Shown here piece after piece: positions 8,541 through 49,500 of a stretch of DNA of 64,000 bases. Position 1 is the first letter of the stretch. Each line of letters opens with the position of its first letter. The notes below the pieces were generated by a model. That model saw nothing but the letters and a program-made list of their open reading frames with translations, made no database searches and was not told the origin of the DNA. The DNA lies in the IMG/VR virus record IMGVR_UViG_3300025011_000016; one strand, 5' to 3'. Source of the DNA: a virus (Duplodnaviria; Caudoviricetes). Both the position numbers and the translations under genes were made by a program.

Positions 8541-10630
8541 GTGTTAATGTCAAATGATGATATACGTTCAGTTATATTAGTTGATGAATGGGAACCTGAA
8601 GAAAGGGATGTGATTATCCGACATGATGGAAAACTAGTAATAATACCATTTGACAAAATATTTAACAAGGATAATATAACAAGTTTAAATACTTTTGTTA
8701 TTAAAAAAGAATCATATGTGAAACGTTTGGATCATGTACTGAATAAAGATGGCACTATATCTAAAGGTATATGTCATTATCTAAATTATTTCATTAAGTA
8801 TTATGATTTAGATAATGAGTTATTATTGTCATATATAAAACTCAAATACATTATTGACAATAAGAAAAAGTCTATTAAGTTAATATCTTTCATCAAGATG
8901 TTGTATTCTATTCTGTTTACAGAATCATTAAAGAATAAAATACGACACTTAGTAGAAGACAATTACCATGTTGATGTTACTTCACATAATGGTATTAAAT
9001 ATACCAAATCAATGGAATTTACAAATGAACATGCAAAACTATTAATGATGATCTCAATGAGTATGAAGATAATGGTTCCTATCATATTTCATTTTATCAA
9101 TTCGTCATCTATGTTAAAGGAACCGAATTATATCTTTCAATTTTATGAACGATTGTTCTATATGTATAAATATGATGAAGAGGTTGATATCTATAATAAA
9201 CTATGGGTATCTACATTGGCTAAAGTTAATGTGAATGCTACAAAACATCGAGTTATATGGGACCAGCGAGAAATATTTGGAACAGATCCGTTAATAGAGC
9301 TTGATAAACTATTAAAGGAGAAGATAATTTCTGAAACTATGTTCAAATATACATTTGATAAAAACATTATCAGTTTTAACAGTGTGGTAAAATAATCTAA
9401 TGCCACCTTTTCTTTAACTGACGGGAAGTTCCTTATAGCTTAAACTACTTAATCGTAATAATGTTTAAGATTGGATAATCCGCAGCCAAGATTCTTATAT
9501 AAGAATAAGGTTCAACGACTAGAGTGTGACTCGTAGATCTATAGTTTAGATTGAAATAAGAAAACTCATCTTAATTAAGATGAGAAGATATAGTCTTATA
9601 TCCTATATAACTATAGGGAAGTTCATAAGAGAACTGCATAGATTAACAACCTATGTGAACACGATGCTTAGAAAAACAGCTTGGTTACTTCATACGAGAA
9701 CCTTATGAATTCTCATTAATTGAGTTAAACAATAAAAAAGATCTCGACGGTTTTTTATAGAAGCCGGTTTTCTCTTAACTGACGGGAACTTCCTTATAGC
9801 TTAAACTACTATAAGTAATAATGTTTAAGATTGGACAATCCGCAACCAAGATTCTTAATACAAGAATAAGGTTCAACGACTAGAGTGTGACTCGTAGATT
9901 TATAACTAAATCGAAGTGGAGAAACTTCATAATATTATGAAGAAGATATAGTCTATTATCCTAAAGTAATTTAGGGAAGTTCATAAGAGAACTGTATAGA
10001 GTTATAATCTATATGAATATAAAGTTATCAGGATTAGATAAGCTTGAGATTAACAGTAATAAGATTGATGAATCTTTAATTATATTATCTGGGATTAATA
10101 TAAAGAAAACTATTAAGAGAATTAAGAATAAAATGAAAGTTAAGATCAGTGAAGATGAATTAGAATATTATAAGATCAATCATCACATTAATAAATTTCA
10201 TGTTAGTCTCATATTCTTTTTCTATGCTAGACATTTTGGTAATTATCGAGATCTTAATCTATTAACCCGAAGACAATATTTAACCTTACTAATACTTCTT
10301 AAACGTAAATTACAAATCCAAGGAAATACTTACTTACCCCAGGTTTTAACAAGTAACATTGAAGGTAAATTAAATACTCGTACAATTCAAAATACTAAAT
10401 TCTTAATGAAGATTGAAAATTCTTCTATATATCAATCATTAATGCAAGATAAATTTTCAACTTTAGAAGAATTAAAGAAATCTAATCTAATACTTAATCT
10501 ATTATCAACTATTCTTAATACAACATTTACATGTGTTGATTATGATAATCGAGACAAGTTGGGTACTACATTGGATATTAACTCTGATATGATATCCGAT
10601 GAGTTTCTTAATTTCTTGAATCAATTATAA
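8541..10630 (+). CDS. Putative non-virion RNAP promoter-specificity subunit (AR9 gp226/phiKZ gp68-like); spliced, exons 8541-9388, 9667-9751, 10025-10630 (about 512 aa)
   Basis: Removing two introns gives one continuous frame ...NSVV-LEKQLGYF...KKDLDG-LSGLDKLE...; size and position two genes after the chaperonin match AR9 gp228-gp226 synteny as recalled. Confidence 0.65.
9389..9666 (+). ncRNA. Group I intron (ORF-less)
   Basis: P1 GUGGU/GCCAC with U.G at the 5' splice site; core elements GACGGGAA, AATCCGCAGCC, GTTCAACGACTAGA, AAGATATAGTC; terminal G; P10 UUAGA/UCUAA. Confidence 0.9.
9752..10024 (+). ncRNA. Group I intron (ORF-less)
   Basis: P1 CGGU/GCCG; same core elements as the 9389 intron; terminal G; restores the frame DG-LSG. 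Confidence 0.9.
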
Positions 10631-19980: not shown

Positions 19981-20023
19981 TAATGAGATAGAGCTATGTT
20001 TTACACATAGCTCTATCTCATTA
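19981..20023 (-). terminator. Terminator hairpin after the RNAP gene
   Basis: TAATGAGATAGAGCTATGT-TTTAC-ACATAGCTCTATCTCATTA. Confidence 0.65.
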
Positions 20024-23000
20024 ATCATTTTCGAAACGTGTCATCATATATAGTGTATGAACACCCTCATTGGTTGTCTTTCTCATATTACTACCAGCGA
20101 TATTTAGAATATGAGCTTTAGATGTCATAATTTCAATAGCTTCTTTATTAGCTTCTTGACTAAATAAACCCTTTACTGTAACCTGATCCAAAATATTCAT
20201 ATAGATATTTAATCCATACAGTTCTCTTATGAACTTCCCTATATTAATATAGGATATTAGACTATCTCTTCAATAGAATAAATCTATTGTTTTCCCATTT
20301 CGATATATAACTATATCTACGAATTACTTCTAGTCGTTGAACCTTTCTCTTATATAAGAGACTTGGCTGCGGATTGTCCAATCTTCCATTAAAGAAGCTA
20401 TAAGGAGTTTCCCGACAGTTAAGGAAAATACGGCAATACAATGACCGTCGTACATGTAAACTCCATATTTTCATATGGCATGGACTATATCTTCACCGTA
20501 TAATAATAAATTATTAATTAGGTGTCCTGCACTTCCCAACTAACCCACAAATTAGTCAGTACACTACTAACTACTATATAATTATATGATAGTAATTTTC
20601 GTTAGTCTCTACATCTTCTCTAATTAATTTACATATTTTCACATATTGTAATTTTAACATGGGGGTTTTTATTTTGGGTGTATCATTTAGTTTAGACTCT
20701 ATTTTAATCAATATTTCATTACGGGAATTTTTATCACAATAGAATACAAAATATCCTTGAATAATACGTCCAAATCGAACCGCATGAGTTACAGAACTTT
20801 TATTACTATCTATTGAATCAGCAAATGACTTCGCTCCTTGGAATATATGAAATAACCCATCTTTAAATGCAATTATAGGTTTAGATTTATCTCGTTTAGT
20901 TTGTTCAGAATGTCTAAATAATTTTGTACTTTCACTCATCTTATATTTAGACTCACTATTCATAGTTCCACCGACCCCACCTGTTTTCTTATTATATCCA
21001 ATATTAGGATCATTTGCTTTTAAAGTTGATATCCAATATACCTCTTTTTCGTTCATTTCATTTTTAGAGGTGCATGTGTCTATTATACTGCAATCAAAAT
21101 TATTAAATCCATATTCATTAACTATTTTTATAATATGATATAAATTCGATTTCCTATTAAGCTTTTTATACTTATAATCCTTAAGTCGTGAATGTAGATT
21201 TATTGTCTGACCAATATAAATTTTACCATCTATATTATTTCTCAACATATATATTACACCAAAATGTTTTTTCGATTCAATTATTAGATCATCATTATAC
21301 ATAATAACCCCCCTTATTATATATAAGTTAGTATAAAAGTATTTTTTTACAATATATGAATTTCGTAAATCAATTAAAGCTTGACACGGTATTTCCAGCT
21401 ATCCATATTTCAGGACCTTAGGTTCTCTTACGAAGCTTATTCGTCAATGCTTATTTCACTTCTACCGTTAGCATGAGTATTGTGATACCCATACACCGCC
21501 TGTTAAGCGTTCACAGGATTTTTAACTAAGCTATTTCTAGCAAAGGGAGACAACAACTTTTATCTCCGTTTAAACCAGGTAGATATAAATTTGACATACT
21601 CACAGTATCTGCAAATAGAGTGGATATTTCTTCTTTAGGTAAACTAAGATCGATCCTAGGATAATTCGTATAGACTCTATTTCCAATAAACATCGGTATA
21701 GTTTGGTGGGTACTTAGGACTGATATTTTGTTAGGAAAGCTACTGAAATAATCTGAAATAGGATATCTCGTAACGAATACCATTTTATCTGATGTAACAT
21801 CAACTGCCGCTTGATATAAAATATCACACCAAGTTGCCTTCCTTTGTACTAAGGGAGATTCAGTTTCAGGAACCCCTGGTTTATAATCTTTTCCTATAAA
21901 TCGCATATATAATTTCTTCCCATCAGATCTAGGTTCCTCGACGGGAAGTTCAATTGGTGTAAATCTATCGGATACACTAAATATGAATCTATCAATTTGT
22001 TTTTTAAGATATTCTTCGTTGAAATATAATGAGGGATCTTTTAATTTCACATATCCCATGGAACCGTCCGGATTTCTTACAGGATACTTATTACCAACCT
22101 TCTCTAATTCTCTATGGAAGAAATTTTTAACCCAATTTATTATAAATGGTGTAAATAATGAACATGTTTGTGCAAGAGGAATACCAACATGATAAAAATC
22201 TATTTGCATCTCAGATGGTTTATTTGCTTTGAATATAGGTGCAGAAATTCGTTTATTCATATAGAATATAACTCTATACAGTTCTCTCATGAACTTCCCT
22301 AATTTTCATTAGGATACTAGACTATATCTTCAGGAAATTAAGAATTCCTGAACTCCCATTTCAATACAATAATGTATCTAACTCACGGTAAATTAATATA
22401 ACCATATTTCCGTGTGATAGTCGTTGAACCTTATTCTATTAGATAGAATCTTGGCTGCGGATTGTCCAAACTTAAACATTGTTACTTTAAGTGGTTTAAG
22501 TTCTAAGGAGATTCCCGACAATTAAGGAGCTACGTGCAGTAAATCCACACTCCTCGATCCGAAATCAACCGATTTACCCATTAAATTTTTTCTAATTAAT
22601 CCATTCTTCTTTTCTATTCTACCTTTGAGCAAATCATAAATTTCTACTAAGACTTCCTGAACCTTAGCCCTAGTTCCATTAAGTACAAAATCAAAATTAT
22701 TGGAGTTCCTCAACACAGTTGCGAATCTTAATAATTTAGCGTACTTATCATTGATCTCATGATGACTAATCTTACCCTGTGTTGCTGATTGTAAATTAAC
22801 ATCACGATAGAATGCTGGCACTACAATCCAGTACTCAGTAAATAAAGTATCTTTATCATACGATCTCAGCAAGTCAATTCTTTCACTACGTATAGAACTG
22901 GCATTCTTTTCAAAGTTTATTTTTTCCCAATTTTTATATAAGAATTCTAATCCAGTCTCACCAGATTCCTCAGCTTCAACCAATTGTCCATTTTTATCTA

Positions 23001-23271
23001 TTATAAAATTCTTTGATCCATATACAATAGATTGAAAATTTCTATTCATACGTTTTAATAACTTATAAACAAATGGGTGTAAGAAGTGCCCATTTAGTTT
23101 AATATAAGCATAAGTTTCTCGTCGTTCATTAACAGATACACCGAATATATTTGTAGATAGTAAACCACCAGATGTTGGTATACTACCTTTTTCAAATATT
23201 ATGATTTCAGTGATTTCTTGTAATGAATTAACTTGAATAAACTTCTTAATTGGTATTAAATCAATCTTCAT
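20021..23271 (-). CDS. rpoC: Multisubunit RNAP beta'-like subunit containing the catalytic motif; exons 23271-22547, 22249-21562, 20452-20444, 20188-20021 (529 aa)
   Basis: GKSVDFGSRSV-ISAP (= GKRVDYSGRSVI), TRYP, and spliced GLNGD-YDG-DQ (= NADFDGD); exon lengths sum to 1590 nt. Confidence 0.9.
20189..20443 (-). ncRNA. Group I intron (ORF-less)
   Basis: P1 ACGGU/GCCGU; core CAATCCGCAGCC, GTTCAACGACTAGA, AAGAGATAGTC; terminal G. Confidence 0.9.
20453..21561 (-). ncRNA. Group I intron with GIY-YIG endonuclease ORF
   Basis: P1 GGAGAU/GUCUCC; R element TGTAGAGACTAACG, S element AAGATATAGTCC; terminal G; P10 ACGAC/GUUGU. Confidence 0.9.
20574..21302 (-). CDS. Intron-encoded GIY-YIG homing endonuclease
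   Basis: GVIY..RNNIDGKIYIGQT; GYN; NUMOD-like HSEQTKRDKS. Confidence 0.9.
   Translation of the reverse strand: MYNDDLIIESKKHFGVIYMLRNNIDGKIYIGQTINLHSRLKDYKYKKLNRKSNLYHIIKIVNEYGFNNFDCSIIDTCTSKNEMNEKEVYWISTLKANDPNIGYNKKTGGVGGTMNSESKYKMSESTKLFRHSEQTKRDKSKPIIAFKDGLFHIFQGAKSFADSIDSNKSSVTHAVRFGRIIQGYFVFYCDKNSRNEILIKIESKLNDTPKIKTPMLKLQYVKICKLIREDVETNENYYHIII
22250..22546 (-). ncRNA. Group I intron (ORF-less)
   Basis: P1 GUGU/GCAC; core GTCGGGAA, ACAATCCGCAGCC, GTTCAACGACTA, AAGATATAGTC; restores RSV-ISAP. Confidence 0.88.
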
Positions 23272-46592: not shown

Positions 46593-49500
46593 ATGACTAT
46601 ACTACAAAAAGATTACAGTAGTAATTATTCAATAAAAGAATTAGCTATAAATGACATAGCTCCTAAATATTTTGATATGGTTGATATTAATCAATTAAAT
46701 ATTGGAATGTTTGGTTATAGTACAGAAATGATATCCAATACGACTGAAGATACATTTAATGCAGTTTCAATATTCTTGAAAGAAATGTTTCCTAATAAAG
46801 CTATATTACCAGAATCAATTTATAATTATGCATCATTATTTCAATTAGATAATTTATTTGCAACGCCTGCAAGTACGTATATGATGTTATTTATCAATGA
46901 GAAAGATATAGTTAATTTGGGGATAAATAAAGGTTCTTTCTATGAGTTTATATTAGATTCCGATCTAGTAATAGACATTGAAGATAAACGATTTATGTTG
47001 GATTATAATATAGTTATAACAGCCAAACCATATAAGACAGATTATATTTTTACAGCTCAATATAAATTAGATTTTACAAATTCATTGAGTGATGAAAATG
47101 GTCCGTATATATTAAAAGCTAAAAGAATAAATTATACTGGGAATAAATATTTAGGTTTATTTGTTAAGGTTAGACAATTAAGTAAAACATCTATAAGTGA
47201 ACAAGTATTCACTAATGATAAAATTAACTTTCCTACATTCTCACTTAATTTTGTAGATCAATTAGCAAATTTTGAAATATATTATAAGTCACCAGATTCA
47301 TCTGATTTTATTCAACTGAAAAAAAGAGTTGTCAATACACCGGCTATAGATACTCCATTCTGTTATTATACCGTTAAAAATCAAAATGAAATTGTTATCA
47401 GTTTCTCAACACTCAGTAAATACTTTCAACCAAAATTTAATTCGGAATTTAAAATAGACCTGTATACAACGACTGGAAGTGCTGGTAATTTTCCTGCATA
47501 TACAGGTACTGAAGTAAATGTTATTCCTAAATCTGAAATATATACGTATAATAATGGTATTGTCATATTTGCTATACCACAGTCTGATAGTGTAGGTGGG
47601 TCTGATTATTTAGACATTGAAGAATTAAGATCGATTGTAGTTGAAAAATTCTCTACTGTTGATTCATATACTAATGAGAATGATTTACAAGTATATTTCA
47701 CTAATTTTAAATATAGATATGGTAATGAGATATTATTTATAAAAAAAAGAGATGACGCATTTGAAAGATTATTTTCATCATTTGCGTTACTGAAAGATGA
47801 GAATAATGATATTTATCACACTAACACATTACATGCAATTATTATACCAAGTGAATTCGATACCATATATATTCAAAATAAGTTACTAGTTTTAAAACCA
47901 GGACATCTTTTTAGATTCTAATATGAGTCTCGTTGCATAGTAATATGCAATTGCAACTACTTTAATTGCGGGAAACTCCTTATAGCTTAAACTGATATAA
48001 ATATAAACAAAGTTTAAGATTGGACAATCTGCAGCCAAAGATCTATTTATAGATTTAGGTTCAACGACTAGAACGTAAAGTTCGTAGGGCTCAAGTGAGT
48101 GGGTGAGAATCCCTTAAATCGAAATGGGTAGCCCCAGTATAACAACGTTATAATGGGTGAAGATATAGTCTGTGCTTTAAGGAAACTTAGAGAAATAACT
48201 TAACCGTAAGTCTTACTAATTCATTCCTAATAAAATATTATTATGGGTATAACAAATAATATAAGAAAGGAGGTGAATAAAAAAAATGATTAAGACTTTT
48301 AAAACAAGAATACGACCGACTAAAGAACAAGAAGTATATTTAAATAAATGCTTTGGATATAGACGATTTATATATAATAATACCTTAGAGTATTTTAATA
48401 AGATCCTAGAATTCAATGGTAATATTATTGATAAGGATTTAAAGAAGTTCTTCGATAAATTTGATTTTATTACTCATATATATTCTAAGAAAGAAAAAGA
48501 ACCGGGATTTGAATGGACTAAAGAATATAATAAAACTGTAAAGAATGAAGTGGCTAGTGATTTTAATATAACTGTCAACAAGTTCTTTAAAGATATTAAA
48601 AATAAGAAACGGTGTAAACTTCATTTTAAAAGAAAGATCCATGGTAATGGATCATTCCGAATATACAATAAGAATAAAGGTAACGTTAAAATTATTGACA
48701 AAAACAAATTCTCTTTTATTATTAATAGAGAATATGGTCATATGTCATTGAAAACTTTTGAAGATATAAGTTTCTTATATCAATATGAAATAAAAACAAT
48801 GACTATTAGTATGAAGAATTTTAAATATTATGTATCATTTACATATGAGTTAGATGTCCCAAAGCATACTCATACGAAAAACATAGTGGGTGTAGATCTA
48901 GGAATACTTAATCCGGTAGTTTGTTTTGATGGAAAAGATATCATAAATCCTAAATTCCCAAAGGGAATTATTAAGAAACTAGAGAAGAAAACCGATAAAC
49001 TTTCAACGATAGTTTCTAAAAAGAAGTATGATAAGTACGATCCATCGAAAAACTATATAAAAGCGAGAACCAAGCTTAATGATATTTATATTAAAATAGT
49101 GAATATCAGAATGGATTATATTCAGAAGGTTTCAACCTTCTTAGCTAAGACTTATAGAAACGTAGTAGTCGATGAGTTTAGTTTTAAAGAATTACTTACA
49201 GAATCTGATGGTATTAAGCGTATTAATAGGGGTATTCATAGAGTTGGTGCCTTTACGTTTACACAAGTGTTAAAATATAAATGCTACTTTTACGGTAGCG
49301 AATATATTTTAGCGTTACCTAATACTACTAACACATGCTCTGAATGTAACCATAAACTTAAAACTAAGTTAAAGTTATCTCAAAGAATCTTTAATTGTCC
49401 AATATGCGGGCATATAGATGACAGAGATAATAATGCGGCTATTAATATTTATAAGTCGTTTAAAGGATCTTTATTAACTAACGTAAATAAAGATTTCGCC

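Follow-up and report, generated by a model that had tools for sequence, protein, structure and literature searches.

A predicted nine-nucleotide exon between two group I introns in the catalytic motif of a phage virion RNA polymerase gene

How could the active site of an RNA polymerase (RNAP) be assembled from a gene in which its metal-binding aspartates are separated by introns, and can a stretch of nine nucleotides between two such introns be a true exon? This question is raised by a locus of an uncultured giant phage from a groundwater metagenome, and was approached within a 64,000-nt stretch of DNA (the window). The window corresponds to C1:30399-94398, minus strand, of a 118-kb record (G000:C1) estimated to be 64% complete, and the sequence is known from DNA metagenomes only. 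The initial annotation had described the DxDGD motif of the polymerase as split by two group I introns around a 9-nt exon; all of its statements on the sequence hold, with the gene read on the minus strand, on which all features of the window given below lie unless marked otherwise. The span concerned, 20189-21561, is made up exactly of an upstream intron (intron B, 20453-21561), the micro-exon (20444-20452) and a downstream intron (intron C, 20189-20443).

The identity of the host gene follows from its exons. In tblastn, exon 2 (21562-22249; ISAPIF...LYLPGLNGD, delimited by translation, tblastn and alignment) had its best match in BpSp gp212 (E 5e-27) and matched beta' subunits of AR9-like jumbo phages, with further matches in Goe21, LPJP1, phiR1-37, Staphylococcus jumbo phages, AR9 and PBS1. 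Exon 1 (22547-23271, from the ORF list) starts with MKIDLIPIKKF and ends with GSRSV, and its N-terminus aligns with BpSp gp212 and LPJP1 rpoC1. The two are separated by intron A (22250-22546), an ORF-less group I intron of 297 nt scoring 65.7 bits with RF00028 (threshold 50), which is a paralogue of intron C with a homologous 3' tail; the join restores the frame, and the junction, RSV|ISAP, is uninterrupted in a relative (P0002). Exon 3 (20021-20188 including the stop codon; DQVTVKGLFSQEANKEA...FEND by translation) aligns with the C-terminal ends of the BpSp and LPJP1 proteins, and also with P0005. When the four exons are joined (23271-22547 + 22249-21562 + 20452-20444 + 20188-20021), the reading frame stays open for 529 aa, and this spliced product can be aligned over its entire length, beginning at Met1, with the proteins of two intronless genes, BpSp gp212 and LPJP1 rpoC1. 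The alignment is gapless around the junctions (LPGLNGDYDGDQVTVKGLFSQEANKEA vs LQALGGDYDGDTVSLRGVFSLEANKEA) and contains the segment GDYDGD, present in the gene product only once it is spliced and corresponding, via BpSp, to the NADFDGD of bacterial beta'. Homology to annotated phage beta'-N proteins, together with the DxDGD metal-binding motif, places the product among the multisubunit RNAP beta' subunits. At the level of sequence, the gene is confirmed as an AR9-g145-like virion RNAP beta'-N gene, the counterpart of g145 of Bacillus phage AR9. The lineage is very divergent, since none of the exons matched a Pfam family, RNA_pol_Rpb1 domains included, at E 0.01. In the PDB, a sequence search with only exon 2 as query gave no match, a megablast of the locus against phage records gave none either, and a homologue search of viral contigs with exon 2 as the lone query retrieved nothing.

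Within this frame, the motif is assembled as GD|YDG|DQ, with its three Asp residues on three different exons, as the initial annotation had it. Exon 2 ends with CCT GGT TTA AAC GGA GAT at 21562, the final GAT being the first Asp of the motif; the micro-exon, TACGACGGT, encodes Tyr-Asp-Gly with the middle Asp; and exon 3 opens at 20188 with GAT CAG GTT ACA. Since the nine nucleotides are three codons, their skipping would keep the frame and delete YDG, so that a product reading NGD-DQ would lose catalytic residues, in agreement with what had been proposed; the micro-exon encodes exactly the residues absent from such a product. The pattern G+TAYGAYGGT occurs once on both strands of the 64-kb window (0.16 occurrences expected for the whole window), and the Rfam match to intron C has its 5' end exactly at this sole occurrence. 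Introns B and C are each preceded by U and each end in G. They lie side by side, so that the arrangement is not a twintron, in which introns are nested with no exon between them. Because the gapless GDYDGD alignment needs YDG, and because in relatives without intron B the same nine nucleotides run on directly from exon 2 as ordinary coding sequence, the micro-exon is confirmed, as judged from alignment and relatives, as a real exon required to rebuild DxDGD.

The downstream boundary of the micro-exon is set by intron C (20189-20443), a group I intron of 255 nt without an ORF, which reaches 69.8 bits with RF00028 (threshold 50) and covers the model in full (1-253). Its P1 is formed, in the Rfam alignment, between ACGGU of the micro-exon (nt 5-9) and GCCGU at 20434-20430, as had been predicted for the downstream intron. 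The intron closes with UUUUG before GAUCAG, and it has the U.G pair in P1 and the terminal G expected of group I introns; its 3' splice site was placed by this terminal G and by the 3' tail homologous to that of intron A. Intron C is Twort-like, and its family is present in many copies in this genome. The same site is occupied in several relatives (L005, L009, L010 and L017) and in Staphylococcus phage Machias, and its P1 covaries among relatives (ACGGU:GCCGU, GACGGU:GCUGUC, AUGGU:GCC(C)AU).

Group I introns are frequent in this phage. In the 118-kb record, the group I model is matched 16 times, with several of the matches arranged in tandem. At C1:100519-101369, exons of ~36-42 nt separate three matches, and in the region of C1:19326-19420 the distance between the end of one intron and the start of the next seems to be only ~10 nt. 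A scan of the window at the gathering threshold returned two introns, and the whole-genome search places others in it, namely (in converted coordinates) two tandem group I introns ~85 nt apart at 9368-9976 (+) and another at 47907-48192 (+).

Intron B (20453-21561), which sets the upstream boundary, is longer (1109 nt) and carries an endonuclease gene. Its internal guide (21546-21557) consists of the P10 strand GUUGU(U) followed by the P1 strand GUCUCC. P1 has 6 bp (GGAGAU/GUCUCC, with a U.G pair), and directly beside it a P10 of 5 bp (ACGAC/GUUGU) falls on nt 2-6 of the micro-exon, where the initial annotation had placed it. A GNRA-capped P2 and a conserved 5' domain are also present; in blastn against cultured phages, the sole similarity of this domain extended over 67 nt of Clostridium phage DNA that carries no annotation. 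Further downstream, J6/7 and the 5' strand of P7 (GUAGAGACUAAC, 20601-20612) were located by the family consensus, inside the 3' end of the ORF, and J8/7 and the 3' strand of P7 (GAAGAUAUAGUCC), followed by a P9 hairpin with GAAA (20463-20494), by a partial Rfam alignment. RNAalifold on six family members gives a P7 of GACUA/UAGUC, with the compensatory change GGCUA/UAGCC in L019. As an alternative 5' strand of P7, a GACUA in a conserved hairpin at ~20556-20552 was considered and dropped, the consensus GUAGAGACUAAC being at 20612-20601. The last bases of the intron are ACAUG, with the terminal G. The hallmarks of group I introns (U.G in P1, a guide that forms P10, J8/7-P7 and a terminal G) are therefore all found in intron B, and its P1 and P10 covary in relatives. 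Its score with RF00028 is 25.6 bits, below the threshold of 50, with only the 3' part matching.

The ORF of intron B (20574-21302) encodes a putative GIY-YIG homing endonuclease of 242 aa and has its own ribosome site, AAGGGGGG. The GIY-YIG domain was identified at residues 15-97 (PF01541, 45.8 bits, cut-off 22.6), and over its full length the ORF is 38% identical to that of an intron in another uncultured phage (L021). In both, the C-terminus of the endonuclease overlaps P7. The C-terminal codons (..VETNE.. at 20601-20612 in the window; ..LETIE.. in L021, with the ORF end at 1930-2634) are the J6/7-P7 strand, and thus the same bases encode both the protein and the RNA core. At 21303-21340, upstream of the ORF, the strong ribosome site is preceded by an AT-rich box similar to TATATATAAT, and this box resembles the core of AR9-type early promoters, TATATTAT (bioRxiv 10.1101/2020.12.14.422802). 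The endonuclease of intron B may have an early promoter of its own, as has been reported for AR9 g190 (PMC5312081). The enzyme may cleave the intron-less allele and promote homing of intron B, for which the existence of sister alleles with and without a B-type intron (L017 and L005, see below) is indirect evidence only.

Given these features, it could be argued that intron B is not an autonomous ribozyme, and that it would need a protein helper, the prior departure of intron C or some other way of removal; the micro-exon would be real in that case as well. Such a view could draw on the sub-threshold RF00028 scores of intron B and of its ORF-less homologue in L017 (20.5 bits, threshold 50), on the terminal A of this homologue and on the 729-nt ORF that interrupts the core of intron B and overlaps J6/7-P7. 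However, the intron B of the window has every hallmark that can be checked (U.G in P1, covarying P10, consensus J8/7, compensatory change in P7, P9 with GAAA, terminal G), and in the introns of phage T4, self-splicing is not precluded by an endonuclease ORF that lies in a peripheral loop and extends into the core. We therefore hold a non-autonomous intron B to be unlikely. Intron B is read as a divergent IA-like group I intron that falls outside formal Rfam membership and for which modelling of the P3-P6 domain was not convincing. Anatomy, frame, relatives with and without introns and guide-exon covariation are established here, while self-splicing of intron B and of the other introns is predicted.

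Related phages provide natural alleles of the locus, and these decide its anatomy. No intron interrupts the motif in L011 (GGAGACTATGATGGCGACCAA). In L005, L009 and L010, GD-YDG is contiguous and an intron follows directly after GGT (Rfam 76-88 bits), L005 being part of a 250-kb contig (L005/6/7). In L008, an intron homologous to B lies directly after GGAGAT, and its guide, GUCGUA, is exactly complementary to UACGAC. Both insertions occur together in L017, a 95-kb phage contig in which a B-type intron precedes TATGATGGT and a C-type intron follows it; L017 and L018 are one phage assembled from two samples (IMGVR_UViG_3300025010_000040). The exon 2 of L005 is 92.5% identical to that of L017, and since L005 lacks the B-type intron, the boundaries of the insertion in L017 are fixed.

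A search pattern derived from the window and L008 recovered further members of the intron B family; with the pattern GGGAAGTGCAGGACNCC, one true relative (L021) and ten chance matches were obtained. Homologues of intron B are found at the B site in L008, L017 and L021, and all family members with a readable host gene are located at D|xDGD of beta'-like genes (NAD|FDGD in L021), the splice sites of the distant members L012 and L019 not being fixed. The P10 guide covaries with synonymous changes in the exon (ACGAC:GUUGU in the window, UAUGAU:AUCAUG in L017, UUUGAUG:CAUUAAG in L021), and across the relatives three insertion sites within 9 nt of the motif are used.

Two of these relatives deserve separate mention. 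The ORF-less B-type intron of L017 (L017:3535-3909, also in L018) ends with GGUAAAAUA, so that its last base is A where G is usual, and its J8/7 reads GAUAAGAUAGUCC instead of GAAGAUAUAGUCC; its boundaries are established by comparison with the sister L005, which lacks the intron, and by a P10 of 6 bp. Therefore, not every member of the family resembles a standard ribozyme. In L021:300-3100, a beta'-like gene on a 65-kb contig of another uncultured phage, four Rfam-positive group I introns and a B-type intron with a GIY-YIG gene are found within ~3 kb.

As the intron C family is multi-copy in this genome, and contigs from related runs break and join inside these intron repeats, the tandem layout might have been produced by an assembly that joined repeated intron copies from different places. 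Nevertheless, a contig of 7378 nt obtained from a further sample of this same study supports the assembly independently (and the assembly only): over 20357-22300, an interval comprising all of intron B and the micro-exon plus 87 nt of intron C, there are zero differences. Moreover, assemblies of a different phage from two samples (L017, L018) show this layout too, and the exons on either side fit one gene in frame. An assembly artefact is, in consequence, extremely improbable. Four DNA runs compared with the locus gave mostly pieces of paralogous introns; the read "joints" 20273/22254 and 20361/22256 seen in them were rejected as intron-less alleles, as they reflect the resemblance between introns A and C. 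A search of metagenome contigs for the exact spliced-junction 21-mer gave only chance matches in GC-rich bacterial genes.

How the nine nucleotides might have become an exon, and how they might be retained, can be outlined as follows. Two mobile group I introns of different families would have settled independently at homing sites 9 nt apart, within the codons of the Mg-binding motif, turning the intervening 9 nt of coding sequence into a micro-exon. Intron B, with its GIY-YIG endonuclease, would have inserted after the first Asp codon, and the ORF-less intron C after the Gly codon. An active enzyme would then need introns A, B and C all to be spliced out, giving NGD-YDG-DQ. The 3' splice site of intron B would be found via P10 with nt 2-6 of the micro-exon, and the 5' splice site of intron C via P1 with nt 5-9. 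As the two helices overlap by 2 nt, they are mutually exclusive and the two reactions should be sequential, in either order. The initial annotation had taken this overlap to imply ordered splicing, which does not follow, since a 2-nt overlap fixes no order and either intron may leave first. If intron C left first, the micro-exon would be joined to exon 3 and still be free for the P10 of intron B; if intron B left first, it would be joined to exon 2 and still be free for the P1 of intron C. The duplex energies are similar (-5.0 kcal/mol for P10 of B vs -6.0 to -6.6 kcal/mol for P1 of C) and decide on no order.

The same pairings bear on the possibility that intron B, the nine nucleotides and intron C are removed as a unit, either by skipping or as a "zombie" tandem twintron, or that the gene is a decaying pseudogene, in which cases the product would lack YDG and be inactive. 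Skipping of three codons would keep the frame, and tandem intron modules spliced as one unit are described for fungal mitochondria (PMC12308204). Yet skipping should be disfavored, since the guide of intron B, which pairs with the micro-exon at -5.0 kcal/mol, forms only a poor duplex (-3.4 kcal/mol) with the first bases of exon 3; none of the four exons is damaged and all are conserved, and, as described above, the micro-exon supplies exactly the motif residues otherwise absent and is ordinary exon sequence in relatives. Removal as a unit or decay is, for these reasons, very unlikely. By our assessment, the locus is very probably a beta'-N gene in which two introns settled independently with a micro-exon between them, both of which would have to be spliced out for activity. 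Beyond this, competition of the two ribozymes for the overlapping bases may couple their kinetics, so that splicing would time or throttle the supply of the active subunit; or a skipped, catalytically dead subunit may be regulatory; or the tight spacing may reflect competition between introns, each insertion destroying the target of the neighboring endonuclease. We regard proposals of this kind as speculative and rather unlikely.

The locus illustrates the density at which mobile introns can occupy the most highly conserved codons of an essential gene in a phage, and it offers a natural test of the minimal length of an exon that serves as the P10 partner of one ribozyme and the P1 partner of the next. 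Gene callers miss such exons, and as a result the catalytic subunit appears defective or missing when phage genomes come from metagenomes. The family of intron B is specific to D|xDGD of beta' genes, is not recognized by the Rfam model, and should be useful for annotation.

Several known systems share parts of this arrangement. Phage T4 has, in its td gene, a group IA intron with the gene for the GIY-YIG endonuclease I-TevI in a peripheral loop, at a conserved site of an essential gene. A GIY-YIG gene in a phage IA intron is thus common to td and intron B, whereas td is another host gene with another intron family and a single intron. More generally, the invasion of active-site codons by introns is a textbook theme (PMC12908238), and jumbo-phage RNAP genes are often split by at least one intron (bioRxiv 10.1101/2020.12.14.422802). 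As an example, and as the initial annotation had noted for AR9 RNAP genes, the homologous virion RNAP beta'-N gene of Bacillus phage AR9, g145, has a CDS joined from three pieces, with the homing-endonuclease genes g146 and g147 in its introns. Its intron 2 likewise interrupts the catalytic motif (DYD|GD) and, like intron C, is Twort-like. However, AR9 has this single motif intron, at a distance of 3 nt from the C site and of 6 nt from the B site, and thus no micro-exon; the intron carries an endonuclease gene other than that of intron B, and an intron B-like sequence was looked for in the AR9 locus and not found. In Machias, which like AR9 is a cultured phage, gene 117 (viral RNAP beta'-N; bioRxiv 10.1101/2020.12.14.422802) has a small intron exactly at the C site (ADFDG|D, with depositor-predicted boundaries), whereas the B site is free of introns, so that the motif is split once and the neighboring exon is long. 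The beta'-N introns of Machias (L036:6400-7300), among them one at the C site and one near the C-terminus, appear very small, ~180-200 nt each by exon positions.

A second case of the layout is the phage of L017/L018, in which the same gene has both sites occupied around the 9-nt exon TATGATGGT, but its B-type intron lacks an ORF, has a terminal A and differs in J8/7. The protein encoded by exon 2 of the near-identical sister L005 (P0003) shares ~62% identity with that of the window. Outside phages, intervening exons of less than ~4 codons are described as regular for mitochondrial introns in the MFannot paper (PMC10352661), and a second study reports, in Ophiostoma, tandem group IB modules 18 nt apart in cob-201 and a 1-nt exon in rnl (PMC12308204). 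Such organellar mini-exons are likewise flanked by self-splicing introns (group I and II) and recognized by the absence of conserved residues; they are mitochondrial and not of phages, and an overlap of P10 with the next P1 is not discussed in the relevant passages (PMC10352661, PMC12308204). In the literature titles and abstracts searched, no description of a phage micro-exon between group I introns was found. The view that a 9-nt exon between tandem group I introns is very unusual was nonetheless overstated, considering the organellar short exons, the same layout in L017 and the neighboring sites in AR9 and Machias. Introns in jumbo-phage RNAP genes, even within the catalytic motif, are already documented (AR9 record; bioRxiv 10.1101/2020.12.14.422802). 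The arrangement is an extreme form of a known one.
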